DNA of 64,000 bases, taken from the NCBI RefSeq assembly GCF_003334765.1, contig NZ_QOWT01000022.1. One strand, written 5' to 3'. The DNA comes from Escherichia coli. Its GTDB lineage: Bacteria; Pseudomonadota; Gammaproteobacteria; Enterobacterales; Enterobacteriaceae. The translations under genes were made by a program, and so were the position numbers. The notes beneath the pieces are model-generated. The model made no database searches. It was not told the origin of the DNA and saw only the letters and a program-made list of their open reading frames with translations. Of the stretch, positions 3,853 to 16,824 are shown one piece after another. How positions within the stretch are numbered: the stretch's first letter is position 1; every line of letters starts with the position of its first letter.

Positions 3853-4659
3853 ATGAGTGTTATGAATCCAATAAGTTCTAATATATTTAATGCTGAATTT
3901 TTAAACACCCCGGCAGCGGCACTTGCCGCATGGATTTCCATTATTGGAGCTGTTATAACTTTGGTGACGATAGTTATAAGAGCACTATTCAAATATAGAA
4001 AATCTCATGATGTAATTTTGAAAAAATCAGGAATACCTGCGTTTATATTGAATTTTTTTCTTATACGAATATCATTAAAAAGGCTGCCTACTATCACATG
4101 GGCTGAAAAATCAATCACGGTTCTCTTTTCACTTCTTTTTTTGTGTGCAATTTATATTTTTGGTCCAGTTTTCATCCAAGCCATTAGAACCCCACCAAAT
4201 AGCACATTGCTTTATTGGATAAAATCCGGTGAATCATTTTATATGTCAAAAAAACTGGCGACTGCAGCTACAATATTAACCACTCCTGATTGGGAAATAT
4301 CAAAGGATGATTGCGAAGAGTCATCCTCTGCCAGTACAGAGAAGTACAAATCATTAACTATCGAACATAAAGAAATTCTTTGTAAACTACTAACCACTGA
4401 TGAAGGGAATGCTTACATTGATGAAGAAGTCAAGAATTTCGTTAAAGACAAATTCTTTATCTATTCCTTTGCCCCAACAACCATATTTATTCTATTATGG
4501 ATTTCTTTGGGTTTTATACTGACCATTCACTATTCTAAAAAAGTTAGGAAATATATTCTGACTGAACAAAAAAATGCAATTCATTGGGCATATGGTGAAT
4601 TCAAGACAGAAGGAATCTATTCAATATATCAAGAGTTAGAACGTAAGACTCACCATTAA
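3853..4659 (+). CDS. Hypothetical polytopic membrane protein (moron inserted between tail genes S and V)
   Basis: 268-aa ORF, strongly AT-rich unlike flanking tail genes; several hydrophobic segments (e.g. AALAAWISIIGAVITLVTIVI, ITVLFSLLFLCAIYIFGPVF, TTIFILLWISLGFILTI); no recognisable domain. Confidence 0.6.
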   Translation: MSVMNPISSNIFNAEFLNTPAAALAAWISIIGAVITLVTIVIRALFKYRKSHDVILKKSGIPAFILNFFLIRISLKRLPTITWAEKSITVLFSLLFLCAIYIFGPVFIQAIRTPPNSTLLYWIKSGESFYMSKKLATAATILTTPDWEISKDDCEESSSASTEKYKSLTIEHKEILCKLLTTDEGNAYIDEEVKNFVKDKFFIYSFAPTTIFILLWISLGFILTIHYSKKVRKYILTEQKNAIHWAYGEFKTEGIYSIYQELERKTHH

Positions 4660-5047
4660 GACCCAACAAACGACGCTCTGCGTAACGCACTTCCGGTCCT
4701 TTGCGGCTGACGCGATCGCGCAGGCCATAATGGTGAACGCGGGCAATGCGCTGCACCTTACCTTCAAACTGCACGCTGGCAGAATCGGCGCTGGCGGCAG
4801 TTTTCAGGTATTTGGTGGTGCGCAGCTTTGCAAACATCTGACGTTTGATGCGGCCTTTTTTACTGCGCGCCGTGACCTTGCGCGGTTCATAACTGCTGCC
4901 ATCTGGATTGCGCTGCATCCTGATATTCTGCTGCTGTGTCCGGCGCAGTTCCTGCGCCAGCTGGCGCATCATGCGGCTTCTTGCGACTGGTTCCAGATTC
5001 GCCAGTAAGGCACTAAGCCAGTCGTCCACCTTCTGCAGTTCAGCCAC
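4601..5047 (-). CDS. Tail completion / virion morphogenesis protein (P2 gpS-like); last ~19 codons encoded by AT-rich insert DNA
   Basis: 148-aa ORF with basic gpS-like sequence; position next to R; 3' end 4601-4659 overlaps the convergent moron ORF. Confidence 0.7.
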   Translation of the reverse strand: MAELQKVDDWLSALLANLEPVARSRMMRQLAQELRRTQQQNIRMQRNPDGSSYEPRKVTARSKKGRIKRQMFAKLRTTKYLKTAASADSASVQFEGKVQRIARVHHYGLRDRVSRKGPEVRYAERRLLGLNGESYVLTLDILNRFLLS

Positions 5048-5498
5048 GTTTCACCGTCCACATTTCTTCAGGTTCATCGGGTTCTGCTACCGCTTCAACG
5101 CTCGACACACTGCCGTCAGTGCTGACCAGCACACGTTCCGTCAGTTGCAGGTTAAGGCTGATATCACAGACATCGTTGCGCAGAATATCCACCTCAAAGG
5201 TAAATAGTTTTTCCCGTAACGCCGGGTTATTGATGGCATCGGGCTGGTTATCCCGCAGCCACAGCAAAACCGGGGCCATCAGCAGATTCTGGTCGCCGCT
5301 GAAATCCTCAATCACCACGTTCAGGGTGTAACCACGCAGCCCTACGAGTTCACTAAAGGCAGTATCTTTCACCTGATGGAGCCGGACCTGAACCAGGAAA
5401 TTTACGGCCTGCCGGAATATCTGTCCGCCATTCCGTCCGCCTTGCTGAACGAGTCCGCTACGCTGTTCCGGCGTAAATACTACATCAATGGCAGTCAT
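5040..5498 (-). CDS. Tail completion protein (P2 gpR-like); N-terminus possibly not native
   Basis: 152-aa ORF; C-terminal ~100 aa look gpR-like (YTLNVVIEDFSGD...LTERVLVS); N-terminal ~40 codons are antisense to the portal fragment. Confidence 0.65.
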   Translation of the reverse strand: MTAIDVVFTPEQRSGLVQQGGRNGGQIFRQAVNFLVQVRLHQVKDTAFSELVGLRGYTLNVVIEDFSGDQNLLMAPVLLWLRDNQPDAINNPALREKLFTFEVDILRNDVCDISLNLQLTERVLVSTDGSVSSVEAVAEPDEPEEMWTVKRG

Positions 5499-5906
5499 GC
5501 AGGGTTCATCATGTATATGACCGACGCCGCGCAGAACCAGGAGGACGTGAACAACATCCGCCAGGCCATGAAAAGCGCTAAAGGACCGGGCAACTTCCGC
5601 AACCTGTTTATGTATTCACCCAACGGCAAAAAGGACGGGATTCAGATAATCCCGCTGTCAGAGGTAGCGGCAAAGGATGAGTTTCTGAACATTAAGAACG
5701 TGAGCCGAGACGACATGATGGCTGCACACCGCGTTCCGCCGCAGATGATGGGGATTATGCCGAGTAATGTTGGGGGATTTGGGGATGTGGAAAAGGCGAG
5801 TAAGGTGTTTGTCCGTAACGAATTGATACCGCTGCAAAAGCGAATTAAAGAAATTAATGAATGGTTGAGTGATGAAATAATTTCTTTCCAACCATATGAA
5901 TTATAA
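5376..5906 (+). pseudogene. Portal protein fragment (P2 gpQ-like, C-terminal portion only)
   Basis: 176-aa ORF ending ...NVSRDDMMAAHRVPPQMMGIMP...; portal-like C-terminus, about half the expected length; directly abuts gpR on the opposite strand with no capsid, terminase or lysis genes between. Confidence 0.6.
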
Positions 5907-5907
5907 T

Positions 5908-5934
5908 AAAGTAGGGCAAATAATGCCCTACTTT
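5908..5934. terminator. Bidirectional stem-loop between convergent portal fragment and 285-aa cargo gene
   Basis: Perfect inverted repeat AAAGTAGGGC-(AAATAAT)-GCCCTACTTT flanked by A/T runs. Confidence 0.6.
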
Positions 5935-6785
5935 AACCAAATATTATAATCCAATCTTCCTACGTATCTTGAAAAAACAGCCAGAGCAATTGCTTGCCCT
6001 ACACTTGTTAATTCAATTCCTTGATAGTTGCTCTTTGAAAATTTTTCTAAAAATGCAGACACATGAGGGGCAACTAACTTAAGATTTGAAATATATGCAC
6101 TCTTATCTTTTATATCAGTCGGATATTTACTCATAAAATAGTCTTCAACATCCATCCCTAAAAAAGTATTCCATGAACAAGCCCCTGCATATTGAATGTG
6201 ATATATCTGGGCTTGAGACAAATTAAACCCATTAGTATACATTGATTCAAAGTTTCTAAAATTGTGCTCCAACAAATCCAATCGAACACCATTAACAGGG
6301 TCTTTGATCTCAACATTCTTGAGAAGAAAAACTATCGTTATAAGTGATATTTGTTGCTGTGTTAACTTGGGAACGACGGTAACTGCCTCCGTTAAAACTA
6401 TATCTCTAAAATCGTCATTGTTATTGGAGACTCGTTCAACTAACAACTGAGAAAGCACATCCATATTAGCTTTCTTTCCCTTCCTGGCTGATGACTTTAA
6501 TGCCTCAGTCAATGTAGCCTGAACGTCCGGATCGCAAAATTTATCAATAATCAATCTATCAACGTTTTTTGTTAAATCCGAAACGACACGCTCTTCAAAA
6601 TCTTTTGCATTCTCTTGAGCTGCAGCATAAGCAACATCTTTCAATTTTGGAAACTGATTTTCGAAGAGAATGTTGAATAGTTCTCTAACCTCGGAAAACG
6701 ACATCCCTGAAACATTTACATTATTTCCAGCTTGAATTGCATACGAATTATTACCTATTTGTTGCTTTTGCTTATCACTAAACAT
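5928..6785 (-). CDS. Hypothetical protein, 285 aa (AT-rich cargo, cos-proximal)
   Basis: Long ORF in AT-rich DNA; no domain recognised; N-terminal low-complexity motif IGNNSYAIQAGNNVNV. Confidence 0.65.
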   Translation of the reverse strand: MFSDKQKQQIGNNSYAIQAGNNVNVSGMSFSEVRELFNILFENQFPKLKDVAYAAAQENAKDFEERVVSDLTKNVDRLIIDKFCDPDVQATLTEALKSSARKGKKANMDVLSQLLVERVSNNNDDFRDIVLTEAVTVVPKLTQQQISLITIVFLLKNVEIKDPVNGVRLDLLEHNFRNFESMYTNGFNLSQAQIYHIQYAGACSWNTFLGMDVEDYFMSKYPTDIKDKSAYISNLKLVAPHVSAFLEKFSKSNYQGIELTSVGQAIALAVFSRYVGRLDYNIWLK

Positions 6786-7345: not shown

Positions 7346-8347
7346 ATGGGTGGAGAGACTTCGGCTATACAACGAGTCGCGGGTAAGATTTCTGATGATA
7401 TTTTCTCAGTGTTCAAATGGGATCGTGCCGCTAGAGCGGACATGAATTGGGATTGTTGCCAAGAGGCTCATTCCAAGAAAACACATCCAAGCGATGTTGT
7501 ATTTTTCTACATAGATCCATATGAGGAGGAAATGGTCTATCTCAACACAGACCTCAAAAGCTATGCAGAAGGTACTATTGGGAAAAAAATAGTCGAGGGA
7601 GCTTTAACATCGCTTGCTTTAGCTACCGAGTGTGCAAATGTCAGTGAAGAATGGCGATTGAAATATGTTCATGATGATTCTTTAGGTTATAACGTAAGAG
7701 GGTTATTATTCTTATATAACCATGATAATTTATATGATAAAGACTTCTATGAGAATATTACAAAAAAATTAGATCACTCATCTATAAATTGCCCTCCAAA
7801 CATCAAACTACATTTGCTTGACCCTTATAAAATATCAGATTTGATAAACATATCTTCTGACATAACTAAGTTAATTGGTTCAGGCAAACTTCCTCAACCT
7901 GATAAGTTCACATATTATTATCCAGATCTTTCCCTAACAAGAATAAAGCACCCTATTAATCAGACAACACCTGCAACAATTGAATTATTAACATCACCAT
8001 ACATTATAATAAAGCATGAGGCTTTCAGTTGGCTCAGGGATAAAAACCCTGAGGGATATGTTGTTTATTACAATCAACCGGGGGATTCAGTAGACGAATT
8101 CGTTTACTTCTTTGATATGTTATCAACTTATCAGATATTAACCGAAGGTAAACCAATCGTATTACGCCATTGTCACATTCACCCAAATGAAAATGCCATT
8201 CATCATTTTGAAAGAGCGAAAAAGAAATACAGCACAGACTGGCTCTTAGGCGAGGATGAAAGACTTTTTCTTAAAATTGACTTCGACAAGACAGACAAAA
8301 TTGTTGTTGAATATAATCTTGAACAAATCGGCATGGAGCAACGATAA
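7346..8347 (+). CDS. Hypothetical protein A, 333 aa (first gene of three-gene cargo operon)
   Basis: ORF with AGGAG-like RBS ~10 nt upstream; AT-rich; stop overlaps next start (TAATG); no Walker A, RT or TIR motif seen. Confidence 0.7.
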   Translation: MGGETSAIQRVAGKISDDIFSVFKWDRAARADMNWDCCQEAHSKKTHPSDVVFFYIDPYEEEMVYLNTDLKSYAEGTIGKKIVEGALTSLALATECANVSEEWRLKYVHDDSLGYNVRGLLFLYNHDNLYDKDFYENITKKLDHSSINCPPNIKLHLLDPYKISDLINISSDITKLIGSGKLPQPDKFTYYYPDLSLTRIKHPINQTTPATIELLTSPYIIIKHEAFSWLRDKNPEGYVVYYNQPGDSVDEFVYFFDMLSTYQILTEGKPIVLRHCHIHPNENAIHHFERAKKKYSTDWLLGEDERLFLKIDFDKTDKIVVEYNLEQIGMEQR

Positions 8348-9426
8348 TGGCTAAAAAACTATATTTCGCAACTGATAAAAATATTTATGATGCATTACAT
8401 CATAAAAGGATAACCGCTGCAAAGTTGCATGAATTATTGTTGAATCGAGGTGTGTTTTTATCACCAGAACTCGACAAGGAAATACTAATCGAGGAAATAT
8501 CCAAACTTCCTCACGGATTTAATGAATTAGAACACATAAAAAAACTGGTCAAAACATATGACCCAAGGGAAAGCACTACTAGTGTGAGCTTCCAAACCTC
8601 AACAAATCAGGCCGAATTAAAAAGTGCTGCTGAAGCACTAAAAAAAACATGCTCCCCTAGTAAAGGTCAAAGCCTGAATATTGTAGCTAAAAAAGATGGC
8701 TCGCTTACAGTAGAATACAAATATGAAGAAATAGACCTGTCTAAAACTGCATTACGTCAGATCGACAAGCGGAATGTTATAATAGAACTTCGCCCTGGAG
8801 CTGACAAAGTTGAAGTACGTATGCCTCAAAACCCCGAGGCAAAAAAAGTTATTGAGAGCTTGCAAAACGAGCTATCTAAAATCAAGTCCGAACCTATCGA
8901 GCGCTTCGAAATATCATTACTAGCAATAACTGATCCTACATTGCGAAGTCAGTTTTTTCAGGAATTAATGAATGGTCTACGCGGTTATGAGACTGATGAC
9001 GTAACAAAAGTCGAATTAAATCGCAGTACTGATGCTAGTGAGGATGAAGACAAGGAAGAAACTATTGATACCGGATTTGTTAAGAAAGCCGTCCTTAATG
9101 GTGAAGGGGTAAATAGTTCAGCTATATTTTCTCAACTACATGAGAAAGGTTATTATATCGGGCGTATTGCATGGTCTTCAAAGCCGACAAGTGGAATTGG
9201 AGACAGAATCAACGTCGAAGCATTTTTCAAAGACTCAGAAAAATGCTGTGACTTTGCCTATCAAATTAAAGGTATAAACAATCAAAAAGAAGACGGTTTC
9301 AATGTAACCATTCGCGCGGCAACGGCACAAGAGAAAAAACATATTAGTGAATTAATTGAGTCCGCCGCTGAAAATGCCTATAATATAATAATAGGATCAG
9401 AGGTGAACGAAGATGAAAAAGGTTAA
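8347..9426 (+). CDS. Hypothetical protein B, 359 aa (second gene of three-gene cargo operon)
   Basis: ORF coupled to gene A by a 1-nt overlap and to gene C by a 14-nt overlap; acidic stretch DASEDEDKEE; no recognisable domain. Confidence 0.7.
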   Translation: MAKKLYFATDKNIYDALHHKRITAAKLHELLLNRGVFLSPELDKEILIEEISKLPHGFNELEHIKKLVKTYDPRESTTSVSFQTSTNQAELKSAAEALKKTCSPSKGQSLNIVAKKDGSLTVEYKYEEIDLSKTALRQIDKRNVIIELRPGADKVEVRMPQNPEAKKVIESLQNELSKIKSEPIERFEISLLAITDPTLRSQFFQELMNGLRGYETDDVTKVELNRSTDASEDEDKEETIDTGFVKKAVLNGEGVNSSAIFSQLHEKGYYIGRIAWSSKPTSGIGDRINVEAFFKDSEKCCDFAYQIKGINNQKEDGFNVTIRAATAQEKKHISELIESAAENAYNIIIGSEVNEDEKG

Positions 9427-10096
9427 ATGGCTTAAGTTAAACATACGGCTTGAGTTTGAAACAGCCGTTAGACGTCTTTCTCTTGATTCTTTTACAGAGG
9501 ATAAAGGGAAAGGGTTCATTTTTGATAAAATACGCCATGATTTTGCAAATGGTCGCTTTGTCGAGCGTATTGTTTATCATGATAAAATATTAAGCTTTGA
9601 CGGAAGCGAAACTACCGTTGAAAGAATCGAATATCGCACCACAAATTTTAGCGTGGCTTTAGACTCTCTTCCTGTAATGCAGATTACTAACCCACCCAGA
9701 ACTTTAAAGCCTTTTTCGCAGGCTTTGGTAAAAAATCTTGGCTTAGGTGTTAGTTTGGAAGAAATTGACATAAACCCTATAGACTGGCTTAATGAAATAT
9801 CTTCAAGTGTAAATATCAATTTAACACAACTTGATATTTCAAGGGTTAGAGTTTCTGATTACGCCACAGCTAAAATGCAAATAATTGGCAGCAATGATCT
9901 TAGGAAGTATTATAAAGAAGAATTAGAGGGTAAAAAAATAAGAATTGACAGGCTTGTTTGCTCTGTTAATTCATTAGAATATTCCGGTAAGCTCAAGATC
10001 ACCAATAGCGGCCTTGCTTATATTGATGTTAGAAATGAGAATGAGTTTACGAAAATCGTTTTTGATACGTTAAAAAAAGTCACCCTTCAATCATAG
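9413..10096 (+). CDS. Hypothetical protein C, 227 aa (third gene of three-gene cargo operon)
   Basis: ORF starting inside the end of gene B; followed by a strong hairpin; no recognisable domain. Confidence 0.65.
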   Translation: MKKVKWLKLNIRLEFETAVRRLSLDSFTEDKGKGFIFDKIRHDFANGRFVERIVYHDKILSFDGSETTVERIEYRTTNFSVALDSLPVMQITNPPRTLKPFSQALVKNLGLGVSLEEIDINPIDWLNEISSSVNINLTQLDISRVRVSDYATAKMQIIGSNDLRKYYKEELEGKKIRIDRLVCSVNSLEYSGKLKITNSGLAYIDVRNENEFTKIVFDTLKKVTLQS

Positions 10097-10191: not shown

Positions 10192-10425
10192 TTAATGCAG
10201 CCAGCTATCGTCCTCCCAGACCTGCTGCATTATTTCCATCACTCGCTTTTTGTCTTCATCCAGTTTTAACCCGCTCAGCTCAACGCCATTGGCGCTGCCC
10301 TTACGGATACGAATTGCTGTTTTGGGATACAGAGGGCGCAAATTACGGTAAAGCTCGGATTCAAGGGCGTCCAGGGTAGACTGGCTAATCTTCTGCTCTT
10401 TATCGATCATTATTTCAATGCGCAT
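10192..10425 (-). CDS. DinI-like protein
   Basis: ORF 10192-10497; internal Met begins MRIEIMIDKEQ..., 77 aa, alignable by eye to E. coli DinI (MRIEVTIAK...WESADDW); downstream of a LexA box. Confidence 0.7.
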   Translation of the reverse strand: MRIEIMIDKEQKISQSTLDALESELYRNLRPLYPKTAIRIRKGSANGVELSGLKLDEDKKRVMEIMQQVWEDDSWLH

Positions 10426-10435
10426 AAAAGCCACC

Positions 10436-10624
10436 TCAGCTGATGACATCCATTGAGCGGTTGTATTCGTGGGTTCTGATTTTTGCCATGAGTTCATCTG
10501 TCAGTTCAGAAACCCACTGCAGAGCCAGCCCCTTCTCTTCATCACTACACTCACTAGCCGCTACAAGCTTAAGAAAAAAATCAATGCGCTGGAGCTTCAA
10601 AGACTCCAAAAAATAGTCCTGCAT
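10436..10624 (-). CDS. Small protein, 62 aa, first gene after the LexA box (possible Tum-like antirepressor)
   Basis: ORF ~40 bp downstream of the LexA box; position corresponds to the SOS-controlled tum module of 186-like phages; functional call is by position only. Confidence 0.35.
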   Translation of the reverse strand: MQDYFLESLKLQRIDFFLKLVAASECSDEEKGLALQWVSELTDELMAKIRTHEYNRSMDVIS

Positions 10625-10664: not shown

Positions 10665-10683
10665 CACTGTTTGTATTTACAGT
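10665..10683. promoter_or_regulatory. LexA operator (SOS box) upstream of the tum-like/DinI-like module
   Basis: ACTGTTTGTATTTACAGTA fits CTG-N10-CAG; AT-rich promoter-like context. Confidence 0.7.
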
Positions 10684-10775: not shown

Positions 10776-13190
10776 TTAATACAGGTTCCGCCACTTATCA
10801 TCTTCCTGCAAACGCTGGTTCCGATAGAAGATACGCAGGCCTGCTCCTGACGGAATACTGCCACCACGTAGGAGTAAATCGACCTCTTTCTCGCTGCCAT
10901 CAAATCCTCTGGACTTCAGCTCATAGACGAGCTGCTGTCGCTGATGATCTGTAATTCGCTGTTTGTAGTCTTTACGCCGTTTCAGCTTAACTAGGCGTAA
11001 CCTCGCTGCCAGTTCCCGGCGCTCTTTTTTGCTCATACTGTGCAGGTAATCGTGCAATTCCTTGTCATCCATGCGGGTAATGTCCGTTCTGGTGTCCCCA
11101 TCAGCTGATTTATCTTTATCCTGTTGGTTCAAATTTTCAGCAAGGGGACAGTTATTGCCACGAGTCCAAGGGGCGCAAGCGCCCTGGTCGGCTGCCGCCT
11201 CCTGAACGTCAACGGCTTTACGAACCATTTTCCACTTCACTGCATGAGTGCAGATCTTGCCCTCTGCAATGGGTGACCAGATGCCATAAATACGAATGCC
11301 GTGATCGCCATAGGCGGTCGGCTCTTCGTTGATTTCATAAGCGGTTCTGATGAGGTGATATTTACGGGGAACCAGTACGCCGCCCTGCTTCATGATGTAG
11401 GTGGCAAAACAACCAGCATCAGCAGCAGCCAGAATGGCATCAAGACGCGGGTTATCCAGTACCGGCGCACCTGCTTTTTTGTCACCCTGTTGCCTTGCCG
11501 CCTGACCAGCCAGCAAGCGAAGTTCACGGTAAGCCTGACGCCCCGGAATACCAAAGAAGCGGAATTGCTGAACACGATGCAGAGACGCCCAGGCATTAAC
11601 GTATTCAGCGTTATCACGCAGGGATTTACCCGTTTCCTTGCTGATCTCGCCAGCCAGACCACGCCCGTCAATGTTCTTACTGATGTATTTCGCGATGTAG
11701 CTTGTTGGCGTACCTTTGCGCGGGTTTATCAGCTCAGACTTAAAGCGTGGCCCCGTGTTATTGCCCAGCTCCTCGCGGTCTTCACGGATGGCAAACTTAC
11801 GCAACAATGCAGTAATGGCGCGGCGGTCTTTTTTGCGCATGAAACACAACAGGTGCCAGTGAACTGTGCCGTCATGATGCGGTTCAGCCACCCGCACGCC
11901 ATACCAGCGCAACCCGGCTTTGTGCATAGCCTTACGAAATGCAGCAAACATGCCGACCAGATAATCGCTGCTTTGTCTTACCGTCGCGTTTGTCCAGGTC
12001 GGGTTTGGTCTGCCGTTATTGAGCGTGGAATGGAAACGCGACGGACAGGTGATAGTGTAGAAAACGGCACAGTCACTGCGCATTTCTGCGATAAGCTCCA
12101 GACCTTTAACACAGGCCATCATCTCATTGCGGCGATGCGCCGGGTTGCTGCTGCTGGCGTTTACCACATCCTCCATGTCCAGCGTGTCGCCGTCTTCGTT
12201 CACCAGTTCATGAGAACGGAAAAACTCCAGCGACTTACGGCGCTGCTCACGTTTATGCATCACGGCTTCATAGCTGACATAGGGAGATGCTTTTTTGCTG
12301 ACCAGGCAAACAGCACGCAACTGCTCTTCCCGCCATTCGCAACGCATCTTCCATAATTTCCGGTACCACCAATCGGCGCACAACATACGCGCCAGCGAAC
12401 CCGGAATGAGTTCATAGGGCACGGGTTTACGGCGGTTTCTTTTCCGACGAAGTTGCTCAAACGCAGGCGGGATAACATCCAGTCGCAGGGTTTCTGCTGC
12501 CACCTTTTCCCATGTCTTGCGGATTTCTTCTGGCTTAACATCATCGGTGGCGTACAAATCACCACAAGCGGCATCAAGACACATGCTCATATGCGCAGCG
12601 ACAAGAGTAGACAGGCGTTTCACCTGATCCTGACTCATTTCAGGCAGAATCAGCAGGCCGTCCAGCCCTACATGGCTTGCCATAAAACGAAAAGATGCAG
12701 ATAGCTGGCTGTCGCGTACATGCTCCAGTCGCTCCAAACATGGCTTAATCGTCTCACGCAAATAGCGGGAATAAGCCTTTGGCCTGCCCAGGCTGCTGAA
12801 GTATTCAATACGTTGCATCAGCGGCTTGCTGATATGGGAAGGCTGGGCATTGACGTCCGCCAGAATGACCATATCTGGATTAAAACGCTGCTGCTCATGC
12901 GCCAGCTTTGCCCGACTAATGAGCTTATCCTGCTCCATTTCGCGCTGGACAGGATCACGGGATTCATTAAAGAAATAACGCTCCCAGACCTGATCACTCA
13001 GTGCCTCGCGGCGCAGGTGTTCCTGTTCGTTATCGGCAGCGTACAGAGCGATCAGGTTTGAAAGCGCAGAAACCGGCGCAACTTCCGCCGGGTCCAGATA
13101 AGGGTTAATGGCCTTTTTCGGGCTGTTCCATGAGAACGCTGCGGCAGCCTCGTTAAAGCCGCAGCAGTTGTTCATATCGGCATGGCTCAT
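10776..13190 (-). CDS. Replication initiation protein A (P2/186 gpA-like rolling-circle replicase)
   Basis: 804-aa ORF, the size and position of P2-family gene A; start overlaps Dam stop. Confidence 0.75.
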
Positions 13191-14044
13191 GCACGTACTC
13201 CGTACACGGCAGAACTATCCACGCCACGCGAATAATCAAATCCCACCCAGCAGCGCGGCCCGGAAACAGCAATGATTTCTGTTGCTGATTTACCCTCGCC
13301 AGCTGCCACACCGATGCTGCGTTTTACCTTGATATAGTGGTGAGTAAAATTGCGATACAGCGAACGGATCAGGGATGTATCACTGTTAGAAACAATGACC
13401 GGATGTCCTTCTGATGACCGATGTTCAAGAACGGATGCCAGGTGATACTGGTCATCTTCAGTGAAACCATCAGTGTGATAGCCGGAAAACGTACCGTCAT
13501 ACGGCGGATCGCAATACACCACATCCCCCGCCTTCAACATCGCCAGCGTTTCATCAAAGCTGGCGCAGATAAACGTTGCTCGCTGGGCTTTTTCTGCAAA
13601 TGCGCGAATTTCTTTTTCAGGGAAATACGGATTTTTATAATTACCGTAGGGAATGTTGAAATGCCCGCTCTTGTTATAGCGACATAAACCACGGTAACCG
13701 TGACGATTGAGATACAGGAAATATACCGCTTTCATGAAATCAGTAATTTCAGTTGAGTAATTAAACTCCTGCCTTATGTTGTAATAAGCCCCCCCCCTGT
13801 TTGCGATCTCAAATAAAACTCTGGCGCGAGATATAAACGATTCACAATCAGCAGCAACCTTTTTATAGAGGTTGATTAAATCAGGATTAATATCCGCAAC
13901 AAGATAGCTGGGGTACTCCGTCTCCATCATCACTGCACAGGAACCCGCGAAAGGTTCAACCAGTCGCGGGCCAGCAGGAAGATGCTTTTTCAGTTCGGAC
14001 ATAATGGCGGTTTTATTTCCCGCCCATTTCAGGATGGTGCTCAT
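13187..14044 (-). CDS. DNA adenine methyltransferase (Dam-like, D12 class)
   Basis: ORF 13187-14104; start chosen at internal Met ([11 protein letters not shown]...); motifs EPFAGSCAV and DPPY typical of Dam-type N6-adenine methyltransferases. Confidence 0.85.
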
Positions 14045-14268
14045 ACAGCACCTCCGTTGTAATGTTTGCCTTTCAGCTCTGCGATTTCCTGACAGGTAAT
14101 GCAAAGCTGCACACCCGGAATGGCACGGCGGCGTGCTGGCGGAATTGGCGCTTCACACTCAATGCAAAGCACGCGGGACACGCCCGGCGTTTTGGCACGG
14201 GCAGCACGGATATGACGCTGGCGTTCTTCTTCAACGCGCTGCTGTACGAGATCCATTGCATCAGCCAT
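14041..14268 (-). CDS. TraR/DksA-family C4 zinc-finger protein
   Basis: 75 aa with CIEC...CITC cysteine pairs. Confidence 0.7.
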   Translation of the reverse strand: MADAMDLVQQRVEEERQRHIRAARAKTPGVSRVLCIECEAPIPPARRRAIPGVQLCITCQEIAELKGKHYNGGAV

Positions 14269-14507
14269 TAGTGGATCTCCTGCGCTTCGTTCTGGATTGC
14301 TTCAGCTGCCACACGCAGCAGTTCAGCCGCTTCAACGTGGTTTAGCTGGCGGGATGTGATATGGCACGCAAGGCTATCAAGGCGAGCTGCCATTGCTTCA
14401 GCTCTTGCCCGACGTTCTTCCAGACGAGCCTCTGTCAGTAAAATATTAAGTCCTGCGTCATCCGGTCCGGTTTTAGTCGAGAGGGTTTCAATATTACGCA
14501 TAATCAA
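14268..14507 (-). CDS. Hypothetical phage early-region protein, 79 aa
   Basis: ORF packed in the early operon between the TraR-like gene and upstream genes. Confidence 0.5.
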   Translation of the reverse strand: MIMRNIETLSTKTGPDDAGLNILLTEARLEERRARAEAMAARLDSLACHITSRQLNHVEAAELLRVAAEAIQNEAQEIH

Positions 14508-14568
14508 TTCTCCTGAATTTAGATAAAGGAATGCCCGGCGGGTTTACGCCATGAATTTCATTAATTGG

Positions 14569-16109: not shown

Positions 16110-16254
16110 AAGGCAACATTCCTTCTAGATATGGCTTGTGGCGAGCCGTTGTTTGTCGTGATTAGTAGTGAAGGCTCCAAAAGAACACTTCTGGTTCAAC
16201 TTTAAGATCGCTTTTGGAATCTGTCAACGAATTTTGGATTTCTTTGGAGGACTT
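16110..16254. promoter_or_regulatory. Lysis-lysogeny switch region between apl and cI
   Basis: Intergenic region between divergently oriented apl-like and CI-like genes; operators and promoters expected by analogy with 186 but not mapped. Confidence 0.5.
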
Positions 16255-16824
16255 GTGGATTTCAATAGCGGCGGTAAGAAAGCCATAGAACGTTTAGTTG
16301 AAGCATATGGGTTCGGTACCCGTCAGGCTCTATGTGATCATTTAGGTGTTTCTAAGAGCACCATGGCAACGCGCTATATGCGTGATATTTTTCCAGCAGA
16401 TTGGGTAATCCAGTGCGCCCTTGAAACGGGCACCTCGCTTAATTGGCTAACAACAGGGCATGGTTCAAAGCAAGCATCAGCAAATACAAATACTATAGAA
16501 GTAGAAAAATATTTATTGTCTGATGGAGCATTGCAGAAAGACGGTTTTTATATTTTTGATAAGGGATTTCTACCCTCTACGTTTAAAAAACCTTTTGTCA
16601 TCACAGATAACAATTCTGAATTTATTTGTGATAAAGAATTTGATGATATACGTGATGGTAAATGGGTAATAAGTATTGATGGCGAAATAACGATCCGTGA
16701 CATTACTCGTTTACCCGGTGGAAGAATCTTCGTCGAGGGTGGAAACAGAGCCTTCGAATGCAAGATAGAAGACATTGAAATAATTGGTAAAATTATAAGT
16801 TTAACAGTCAAGTATGTTAAATAG
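16255..16824 (+). CDS. cI: Immunity repressor (186 CI-type)
   Basis: ORF 16168-16824; start placed at GTG 16255 preceded by GGAGGA; product ...ERLVEAYGF...QCALETGTSLNWLTTG... fits the 186 CI N-terminal HTH region; length ~189 aa. Confidence 0.7.
   Translation: MDFNSGGKKAIERLVEAYGFGTRQALCDHLGVSKSTMATRYMRDIFPADWVIQCALETGTSLNWLTTGHGSKQASANTNTIEVEKYLLSDGALQKDGFYIFDKGFLPSTFKKPFVITDNNSEFICDKEFDDIRDGKWVISIDGEITIRDITRLPGGRIFVEGGNRAFECKIEDIEIIGKIISLTVKYVK

Follow-up and report, generated by a model that had tools for sequence, protein, structure and literature searches.

A Dam-family adenine methyltransferase gene overlapping a TraR-like zinc-finger gene in the early operon of a defective 186/Fels-2-like prophage of Escherichia coli

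The window, a stretch of 64,000 nucleotides of Escherichia coli DNA (contig NZ_QOWT01000022.1 of assembly GCF_003334765.1), contains a 186/Fels-2-like prophage (Peduoviridae) that is integrated adjoining rcdA. Its early region carries on the minus strand a DUF2732 gene, a gene for a small zinc-finger protein, a dam-like gene and the replication gene A (Table 1). The coding sequence of dam starts with the ATG at 14044-14042 and ends with the stop codon at 13189-13187. The RefSeq annotation of the identical gene has the same start and names the product (WP_000104169.1) 'DNA adenine methylase'; the start of a longer open reading frame, which is initiated by TTG and reaches 14104, is not the one annotated. 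The zinc-finger stop codon TGA (14043-14041) and the ATG of dam overlap as ATGA at 14044-14041, with a GGAGG 6 nt upstream, and the dam stop and the start of A overlap in another ATGA at 13190-13187. Both ATGA overlaps are accompanied by Shine-Dalgarno sequences. The TAA stop of the DUF2732 gene and the ATG of the zinc-finger gene share a single base (TAATG at 14270-14266). These junctions suggest that DUF2732, the TraR-like protein, Dam and A may form a translationally coupled block. In the record of phage 186, translation of the A protein apparently needs translation to the end of orf84, a gene whose position is equivalent to that of dam.

Table 1. Features of the prophage early region and of the deletion, in window coordinates
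Feature	Coordinates	Strand	Basis
Deletion junction (7,058 bp missing), 8-bp microhomology	5325..5332	.	blastn vs NZ_CP148585
Gene A, 804-aa replication (ori-nicking) endonuclease	10776..13190	(-)	phrog_91, E=1e-289
dam-like gene, 285-aa orphan Dam-family N6-adenine DNA methyltransferase	13187..14044 (stop included)	(-)	ORF, profiles, RefSeq
Catalytic motif IV, DPPY, aa 179-182	13499..13510	(-)	aligns to EcoDam D181-Y184
Start of DNA-recognition beta-hairpin, GYRGLCRYN (= EcoDam G118-N126)	13673..13699	(-)	alignment
Motif I region, EPFAGSCAV, aa 30-38 (AdoMet-binding FxGxG, here F-A-G-S-C)	13931..13957	(-)	alignment
Gene for 75-aa TraR-family C4 zinc-finger protein	14041..14268 (stop included)	(-)	PF01258, TIGR02419, phrog_54
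DUF2732 gene	14268..14501	(-)	phrog_128; same-position homologues in P2 (Orf80) and 186
Sequence conserved with the tR1 terminator of phage 186, just upstream of DUF2732-zinc finger-dam-A	14522..14551	(-)	alignment
pR-like sigma-70 promoter, TTGACA-17-TAAAGT, facing the apl/cII/.../dam/A operon	16199..16227	(-)	consensus match only
CI-type immunity repressor gene	16255..16824	(+)	phrog_4; RefSeq 'phage repressor protein CI' on identical relative

The product of dam matches the D12-class methyltransferase model PF02086 over its entire length (E=4e-76, model positions 1-253 of 253) and scores 319 bits with the Dam family model TIGR00571, whose cut-off is 114.85. It shares 46% identity with the Dam of E. 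coli (EcoDam) over 266 aa and matches the EcoDam structure PDB 2G1P with E=1.7e-73. With the equivalog model of host Dam (NF008152) it scores 289 bits, which is under the cut-off of 441, and the enzyme is a phage paralogue and not an orthologue of the chromosomal dam. No restriction endonuclease gene is adjacent to dam, given that its neighbours, with overlapping ends, are the TraR-like gene and gene A, and the protein is an orphan methyltransferase with no restriction-modification partner. Contigs that carry exactly this protein number 293, and 4,038 members fall into its 90% cluster. The original prediction had described a D12-class, Dam-type methyltransferase borne by a P2-family prophage of E. 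coli, located in the early lytic operon, with its start overlapping the stop of an upstream 75-aa TraR/DksA-type C4 zinc-finger gene, and both genes retained in a defective element. All of these points, including the host, are borne out by the results given here and below.

The same prediction had proposed a comparison of the motifs and target-recognition residues with those of the host Dam. In this alignment the catalytic motif is undisrupted, given that DPPY is intact and invariant across the phage lineage and EcoDam, and six of the seven EcoDam GATC-contact residues that were checked are identical. The residues that read GATC in EcoDam are K9, Y119, L122, R124, P134 and Y138 (PMC4417163). 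They correspond to K6, Y117, L120, R122, P132 and Y136 of the prophage Dam, and all six are invariant in the eight phage-lineage sequences. In sequences as distant as that of Fels-2 (73% identity), and in EcoDam itself, the residues for catalysis and DNA contact do not vary. The exception among the seven is N120, which makes a base hydrogen bond in the EcoDam complexes (PMC4417163) and is replaced by an arginine (R118) lineage-wide. The phosphate-contacting R137 of EcoDam is an asparagine across the phage lineage, five residues are deleted lineage-wide directly after DPPY, and the prophage Dam has a C-terminal extension of 22 aa. The motif I region is invariant in all eight aligned phage-lineage sequences. 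It keeps the phenylalanine and the first glycine of FxGxG, while the second glycine, present in EcoDam (FVGAG), is a cysteine throughout the lineage (G39C).

The changes N120R and R137N and the loss of five residues after DPPY mean that flank preference, processivity and even specificity could differ from those of EcoDam. An active Dam with a relaxed or extended target, or with another flank preference or processivity, is consistent with the fixation of the two substitutions and of the shortened loop in all eight aligned members of the lineage, and with the hydrogen bond made by N120. This is nonetheless unlikely, because the six main discriminating residues are all conserved and because Dam methylase function has been described for a homologue. 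The homologue is encoded by the retron-Ec67 element, which, according to Dodd and Egan in 1996, is reportedly a 186-related prophage. The Dam of Fels-2 and one member of the 90% cluster owe their annotation to similarity with 'retron EC67 DNA adenine methylase'. In PMC7826664, where Hsu et al. 1990 is quoted, the element is said to code for 'Dam methylase functions', and the F-A-G-S-C form of motif I is compatible with activity only if this report applies to the present enzyme. The replaced glycine would also fit a catalytically dead Dam, the reading frame of which is kept only as a translational leader for A, as would the need, noted for phage 186, to translate the reading frame upstream of A. 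Such a vestigial enzyme is scarcely credible, given that the dN/dS of dam versus that of phage Cartapus is 0.15, that the Ec67 element is reported to have Dam function, and that a mere leader would not conserve the catalytic and DNA-contact residues found to be invariant.

The 75-aa protein encoded upstream of dam has a CxxC-N17-CxxC arrangement of cysteines (C35, C38, C56 and C59). It matches PF01258 (zf-dskA_traR, E=3e-11), TIGR02419 of the TraR family (65.8 bits versus a cut-off of 59.7) and phrog_54, 'DksA-like zinc-finger protein' (E=1e-30). Its identity is 91% to the Fels-2 homologue, 68% to that of 186, 46% to P2 Orf82 and 39% to F TraR, and D3, D6 and the four cysteines are invariant among the homologues compared. 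As in Orf82 and TraR, 75 residues comprise a single helix and a C4 zinc finger, and D3 and D6 are kept in the N-terminal DxxDxA motif, on which inhibition depends. Position 8 of the motif is a valine instead of an alanine, whereas the 186 homologue retains A8. P2 Orf82, encoded at the same position of the early operon, competes with DksA for binding to RNA polymerase and is an inhibitor of rrnB P1 (IC50, 250 nM); it is also without A8, and is active but weaker, for which the missing A8 has been suggested as the reason (PMC9239242). Phages are known to use TraR-like proteins to reprogram the RNA polymerase of the host (PMC9239242) and, by analogy with Orf82, this is most likely what the prophage protein does.

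The zinc-finger and dam pair is found in 1,240 of 5,426 complete E. coli genomes (approximately 23%); among sequenced phages, RE-2010, Cartapus, Fels-2 and SopEPhi have it, as reportedly does the retron-Ec67 element of 1990. The constant adjacency of the two genes in 1,231 E. coli genomes and many phages, together with the ATGA overlap, might be taken to indicate a dedicated module of two cooperating genes, for example with the TraR-like protein targeting or regulating Dam. This is hardly tenable, being largely refuted by synteny. In P2 the zinc-finger gene has the same position, but a DUF5405 gene lies between it and A, and in 186 this interval is occupied by genes for an exonuclease subunit, a DUF5405 protein and a PAPS-reductase-like protein. 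Given that both phages keep the zinc-finger gene with other genes in the Dam slot, the pairing reflects the synteny of the conserved P2/186 backbone, to which the zinc-finger gene belongs and in which Dam fills a variable slot between that gene and A. Furthermore, one E. coli variant (H6) has a DUF3850 gene inside the span from zinc finger to dam, which aligns in two pieces, and TraR homologues need no methyltransferase for their action on RNA polymerase (PMC9239242).

When compared by blastn with a 99.9%-identical prophage in NZ_CP148585, the prophage of the window is missing 7,058 bp. The deletion takes out DNA from lysC/lysB onwards, with the lysozyme and holin genes and those for capsid, scaffold and terminase, and reaches into the portal gene. 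It is thus confirmed that the prophage is defective through the removal of lysis and head genes, while the reading frames of dam and of the zinc-finger gene are intact. The deletion is private, given that its junction was found in none of the 5,426 complete E. coli genomes, and retention of dam in this prophage need not, for that reason, reflect selection in the defective state. What remains of the prophage includes cI, int/apl, the complete early operon and a switch of the LexA-box/Tum-like type. Its variable region holds a 3HP defence system instead of a retron. The frequency of GATC in the prophage shows neither avoidance nor enrichment, with an observed/expected ratio of 0.71 versus 0.77 in host DNA and no notable clustering. 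This unremarkable frequency provides no independent signal for a role related to restriction.

The assignment of these genes to the early operon is based on PHROG assignments, on the annotation of the 99.9%-identical relative and on comparison with 186, P2 and Fels-2. The gene order cI/apl/cII/fil/DUF5347/tR1-like/DUF2732/zinc finger/dam/A agrees with that of 186 and Fels-2. NCBIfam yielded no models for DUF2732, DUF5347 or A, and neither the DinI-like gene nor the small open reading frame near dam had a match in PADLOC. The putative pR-like promoter has the position of the 186 pR, between cI and apl. The hairpin of the tR1-like sequence is weak when folded alone, and tR1 is annotated in 186 as anti-terminated in the early lytic phase. 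No strong minus-strand terminator was found between the pR-like site and A. The pR-like site is the only minus-strand promoter-like site that a consensus scan found upstream, with none between it and dam, though a weak internal promoter could escape such a scan. A perfect CTGT-N8-ACAG box at 10667-10682, upstream of a DinI-family gene, resembles a LexA box and is comparable to p95-tum in 186.

Given that dam is placed under a CI-repressed pR-like promoter and that the consensus scan found no separate promoter-like site for it, the prophage is unlikely to affect GATC methylation of its host permanently in the lysogenic state, and any such effect would follow derepression. The contrary possibility is lysogenic conversion, in which the Dam of the resident prophage is expressed in normal growth and alters the level or timing of host GATC methylation and thereby affects gene regulation, mismatch repair or the sequestration of oriC. 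The persistence of an intact dam in a prophage unable to make particles is in line with it, and the weak internal promoters that a consensus scan may miss could supply the expression. It is nonetheless quite unlikely, since dam lies within the CI-repressed early operon, downstream of the tR1-like site, and the scan found no promoter-like site in between. The silence of other prophage methyltransferases points the same way, given that these enzymes are in general often transcriptionally silent in lysogens (PMC4659465).

The gene identities, motif integrity, gene overlaps, operon position, conservation and distribution observed at this locus are probably those of an active orphan Dam-family GATC methyltransferase, encoded in the replication segment of a 186/Fels-2-like early lytic operon, silenced by CI until induction and supplementing the host Dam. 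From them we infer the GATC specificity, the expression timing, the translational coupling and the biological role of the enzyme as follows. In the lysogen, CI would repress the pR-like promoter and Dam would be essentially silent. Upon inactivation of CI, probably by way of the DinI/Tum-like gene that lies downstream of A under LexA control, transcription from pR would pass the tR1-like site. The four reading frames from DUF2732 to A, with their TAATG, ATGA and ATGA overlaps, would then be translated in a coupled manner, and translation through dam would also bring ribosomes to gene A. For high-copy DNA the activity of host Dam is a limiting factor, and an anti-restriction function is ascribed to phage Dams (bioRxiv 10.1101/2020.06.22.160242). 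The prophage Dam may add to this limiting activity and thereby complete the GATC methylation of phage DNA during rapid rolling-circle replication, which would shield that DNA from nucleases specific for unmethylated or hemimethylated GATC, namely restriction of the MboI/DpnII type and MutH. The TraR-like protein would independently enter the secondary channel of RNA polymerase, repress rRNA and ribosomal protein promoters and redirect host transcription for the lytic phase. To our knowledge, all enterobacterial hosts already methylate GATC, so any selective benefit of a second Dam is hypothetical.

Whether the remnant without head and lysis genes has itself been put to use by the host can also be considered. 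It would then be a domesticated, SOS-triggered module that subjects surviving host cells to GATC hyper-methylation and to transcription of a stringent-like kind, and DNA damage could switch on Dam and the TraR-like protein without lysis, with a transient hyper-methylation of GATC that dampens the functions of MutH and SeqA. This is very improbable.

Other candidate properties were rejected. A run of nine G inside dam, at 13789-13797, is the only homopolymer of at least nine bases in the window. Phase variation at this run was discarded because the run is specific to the allele (AGGGGGGGGGC, RGG); six close relatives have AGGGAGGTGGC (REV) or AGTGAGCTGGC (SEL) instead, and Fels-2 is unrelated at this point. 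The sole frameshifted copy of dam that was found (CP019275) is without the run, and that record has many frameshifted genes and looks like an assembly error. M.EcoMIV, a prophage 'Dam homolog' of the ST131 strain EC958, has been reported to be transcriptionally silent (PMC4659465). A link to it was dismissed, given that Phi2 of EC958 is a Mu-like prophage with a different methylase of 254 aa, and that the P2-like prophage of the same strain, which adjoins dmsA, is without dam. Papers on Dam and prophages of Salmonella concern the action of host Dam, a different enzyme, on other prophages (ST64B and others).

The arrangement of dam and zinc-finger gene is already known, being annotated in named phages and in common prophages of E. 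coli, Salmonella and Klebsiella. The locus represents a further intact example of a very common gene pair, and its sole particular feature is the private head and lysis deletion of the prophage. Phage-borne copies of Dam are relevant to the interpretation of dam-mutant methylomes, to anti-restriction and to the triggering of methylation-sensing defences such as retron-Sen2 (bioRxiv 10.1101/2020.06.22.160242).

The closest known systems are the Fels-2-type members of the P2 family, considered here as Salmonella RE-2010, Escherichia Cartapus, Fels-2 (STM2730), SopEPhi and the Felsduovirus prophages of Klebsiella. Their Dams are 97-98% (RE-2010, Cartapus), 93% (Klebsiella phi4.2) and 73% (Fels-2) identical to that of the window, and the order DUF2732, DksA-like zinc finger, Dam and gpA and the overlapping junctions are the same. 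The prophage of the window differs from them in being without head and lysis genes, and in having RGG instead of REV at aa 83-85 of Dam, which gives rise to the run of nine G. The Dam of retron-Ec67 (M.Eco67Dam; Hsu, Inouye and Inouye 1990) is likewise a 285-aa Dam homologue from a 186-related E. coli prophage, which carries a retron where the present one has 3HP. EcoDam of K-12 (2G1P) shares the fold family, the order of motifs, DPPY and the six GATC-reading residues, whereas the prophage enzyme is phage-borne in a CI-repressed operon, outside the host dam operon. Other phage orphan Dams (T4 Dam, P1 Dmt and M.EcoVT2Dam of a Stx phage) are also of the Dam family or GATC type and without partner nuclease, but T4 Dam (approximately 24% identity) and P1 Dmt (36%) are distant, and their genome contexts differ.

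The original prediction had placed two genes on the minus strand of the window, and ORF calling returned both at exactly the claimed coordinates (see table). The mechanically called ORF of dam reaches an upstream TTG at 14104; in a 100%-identical relative, the RefSeq start for the identical gene is the ATG. The claimed overlap of the dam start with the stop of the upstream gene for a 75-aa C4 zinc-finger protein (ZnF) is borne out by an ATGA common to both, with GGAGG 6 nt 5' of the ATG. Gene A likewise starts within an ATGA that it shares with the dam stop, and the end of the DUF2732 gene runs across the ZnF start within a TAATG.

Coordinates of the features discussed, in window positions
Feature	Position	Strand	Detail
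DUF6216 gene	3853-4659	+	268 aa
Deletion junction	5325-5332		8 bp microhomology
LPO_1073/Vpar_1526-family gene	5928-6785	-	285 aa
Hp1-Hp3 genes	7346-10096	+	333, 359, 227 aa; GC ~36-37%
DinI-family gene	10192-10425	-	77 aa; downstream of LexA-type box
Small ORF	10436-10624	-	62 aa; downstream of LexA-type box
LexA-type box	10667-10682		CTGTTTGTATTTACAG
Gene A	10776-13190	-	804 aa; replication (ori-nicking) endonuclease
dam stop/A start	13190-13187	-	ATGA
dam	13187-14044	-	285 aa; ATG 14044-14042, stop 13189-13187
DPPY	13499-13510	-	Dam aa 179-182
C9/G9 run	13789-13797		C9 on plus strand
EPFAGSCAV	13931-13957	-	Dam aa 30-38
ZnF stop/dam start	14044-14041	-	ATGA
ZnF gene	14041-14268	-	75 aa; CxxC-N17-CxxC finger
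DUF2732 end/ZnF start	14270-14266	-	TAATG
DUF2732 gene	14268-14501	-	
tR1-like stretch	~14522-14551		30 nt
GATC	16206-16209		
pR-like promoter	16227-16199	-	TTGACA-17-TAAAGT

The dam product matches end to end the Pfam model of D12-class N6-adenine methyltransferases (PF02086, E=4e-76) and scores 319 bits against the NCBIfam Dam-family model TIGR00571 (cut-off 115), and 289 bits against the host-Dam equivalog model, under its 441-bit cut-off. It matches the crystal-structure sequences of E. coli K-12 Dam (EcoDam; E=1.7e-73), with 46% identity to EcoDam. In the reading of GATC by EcoDam, R124 touches the fourth-position guanine, L122 and P134 are among the reported residues, Y119 intercalates, and K9 and Y138 serve the first base pair (PMC4417163). 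In the alignment these correspond, in the same order, to R122, L120, P132, Y117, K6 and Y136 of the phage Dam, all unvaried in the eight phage-lineage Dam sequences aligned (8/8). The motif comparison with host Dam proposed as a check finds DPPY intact and the principal GATC-reading residues kept. The dN/dS of dam versus phage Cartapus is 0.15, and neither the ORFs nor the annotation of the neighbours includes a nuclease gene adjacent to dam. From the conserved GATC-reading residues, the intact DPPY and the dN/dS, we infer that the phage Dam is an active, GATC-specific orphan methyltransferase. This dN/dS and the residue conservation across the lineage speak against a dead enzyme whose gene persists solely as a leader for A. 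Fixed across the lineage, and different from EcoDam, are the substitutions N120R and R137N, Cys for the second Gly of FxGxG, the loss of 5 residues after DPPY and a C-terminal tail of 22 residues. N120R and the loop deletion make an altered target specificity conceivable, but the principal discriminating residues are kept.

The coding strand of dam contains a G9 run encoding RGG, the only homopolymer of at least 9 bases in the 64-kb window, which could be slippage-prone. Two substitutions separate it from the common allele AGGGAGGTGG (REV), and NZ_CP148585.1, the record with a 99.9%-identical prophage, has it too. A slippage site or switch in dam was considered and rejected, given that the run is specific to one allele and that close relatives lack it; its lack of conservation makes a programmed switch improbable. 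The ST131 "Dam homolog" M.EcoMIV was also rejected as the same locus, being a Mu-like prophage gene unrelated to it.

The zinc-finger protein matches Pfam zf-dskA_traR, TIGR02419 (TraR family, above cut-off) and PHROG 54 ("DksA-like zinc-finger protein"), and among proteins of solved structure E. coli YbiI and F-plasmid TraR are nearest to it. It is 68% identical to the phage 186 homologue (noted "not essential"), 46% to P2 Orf82 and 39% to F TraR, with D3, D6 and the four cysteines unvaried among the relatives compared. In purified form, Orf82 and DksA compete for RNA polymerase, and Orf82 inhibits rrnB P1 (IC50 250 nM); the missing A8 in its DxxDxA is one suggested reason for its weaker activity (PMC9239242). 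Like Orf82, the window protein is without A8, having Val at position 8. By analogy, it would use the same secondary-channel mechanism as Orf82 during lytic development.

PHROG assignments and the annotation of the relative identify the neighbourhood as a P2-family prophage of the 186/Fels-2-like kind, adjoining rcdA in E. coli chromosomal DNA. Integrase and CI repressor genes on the plus strand head the gene order, followed on the minus strand by those for the Cox/Apl-like excisionase, CII, Fil, DUF5347, DUF2732, ZnF, Dam and A, with a small ORF and the DinI-family gene after A. The consensus scan gave a single minus-strand promoter-like site upstream of dam, resembling the early lytic promoter pR, and no strong minus-strand terminator was found by scanning from there to the end of A. 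Just 5' of the DUF2732 gene, a short stretch is conserved with the phage 186 region annotated tR1, a terminator described in the phage 186 record as anti-terminated in early lytic development. Given these three features, the original placement of dam within the early operon is right; more precisely, dam is part of the replication segment that follows tR1. The -10 hexamer of the pR-like promoter is directly preceded by a GATC, a lone site mentioned solely because the operon encodes Dam.

From the position of dam in the operon, CI is predicted to repress dam in the lysogen, and derepression would lead to Dam being made together with A. Constitutive expression of Dam, with lysogenic conversion, is disfavoured by the operon position and by a consensus scan that gave no internal promoter-like site. 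Besides control by CI, the ATGA overlaps predict translational coupling of dam with its neighbours; according to the GenBank record of phage 186, translation of the positionally equivalent ORF there "appears necessary for translation of A protein". The perfect LexA-type box (CTGT-N8-ACAG) and the two genes downstream are laid out similarly to the LexA-controlled p95-tum antirepressor unit of phage 186, although here the DinI domain is in a separate small gene, and this likeness makes SOS induction of the early operon plausible. The most economical role for the phage Dam would be to supplement host Dam, a limiting factor for high-copy DNA (bioRxiv 10.1101/2020.06.22.160242). Extra Dam would keep replicating phage DNA fully methylated and resistant to nucleases acting on unmethylated or hemimethylated GATC. 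This topping-up role is putative, and GATC frequency gives it no independent support (observed/expected 0.71 in the prophage versus 0.77 in host DNA).

The element had been described as defective but retaining both genes, and this is confirmed: 7,058 bp present in the prophage of NZ_CP148585.1 are absent from the window, and dam and the ZnF gene are kept. The junction joins a truncated R-like tail gene to an internal part of the portal gene, with the loss of every lysis and head gene. In the NZ_CP148585.1 annotation, the deleted DNA comprises lysC, lysB, lysozyme, holin, tail X, head completion, terminase endonuclease subunit, major capsid, scaffold and terminase ATPase, along with the initial portion of the portal gene. 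Among 5,426 complete E. coli genomes, not one gave a contiguous match across the junction, and therefore the deletion is private to the source genome. NZ_CP148585.1 and NZ_CP148400.1 are 55-kb records deposited as circular "plasmids"; they contain the P2-like prophage and ~30 kb of chromosomal genes (rcdA, mdfA, deoR, dacC, rimO, gsiD and others), and are probably assembly artefacts, not true plasmids.

Between gene A and cos, in the variable region that holds tin/old in P2 and the retron in Ec67, a 186-related prophage, are three co-directional, low-GC genes. They are full-length, near-perfect matches to PADLOC Hp1, Hp2 and Hp3 (E=1e-239, 3e-248 and 2e-157), which correspond to "3HP", a candidate anti-phage system from hotspots in P2-like prophages. 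An LPO_1073/Vpar_1526-family gene, whose protein has no PADLOC match, and then a small hypothetical gene lie beside the truncated portal gene within this variable hotspot. The DUF6216 gene, on the opposite strand within the tail/baseplate cluster between gpV-like and gpS-like genes, is also found in the intact relative and looks moron-like; its protein has no PADLOC match.

The 1,082-bp dam-ZnF pair occurs in 1,240 of the 5,426 complete genomes, where the annotation nearly always reads [quoted passage not shown]. Contigs with an identical Dam protein number 293, and the 90% cluster to which it belongs contains 4,038 members; an identical ZnF protein is on at least 1,000 contigs. The ZnF/Dam/A trio is annotated in the sequenced Escherichia phage Cartapus (Dam identity 98%), Salmonella phage RE-2010 (97%), Klebsiella Felsduovirus prophage phi4.2 (93%), Fels-2 (73%) and SopEPhi (72%). 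The similarity name "retron EC67 DNA adenine methylase" appears in the Fels-2 record and in one Dam-cluster member; the retron-Ec67 element reportedly has Dam methylase functions, by the title of Hsu et al. (1990) and a summary in PMC7826664, where Dodd and Egan 1996 is also cited. The original finding is accurate and its interpretation reasonable; Fels-2/186-type prophages very commonly carry this locus, which is annotated already and has been characterised in part.

A functional module of Dam and the TraR-like protein is contradicted by synteny with P2 and 186, where other genes lie between the zinc finger and A. In both phages the DUF2732 and zinc-finger genes are in the same place as in the window prophage; in P2, Orf83 (DUF5405) follows before A, and in phage 186 the slot of dam (3891-5748 of that genome) holds an exonuclease-subunit homologue, a DUF5405 gene and a PAPS-reductase-like ORF. 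One E. coli variant has a DUF3850 gene inside the span of its ZnF-dam match. Judged by gene order, the ZnF gene is part of the backbone shared with P2 and 186, and dam fills a slot between it and A whose content varies across the family.
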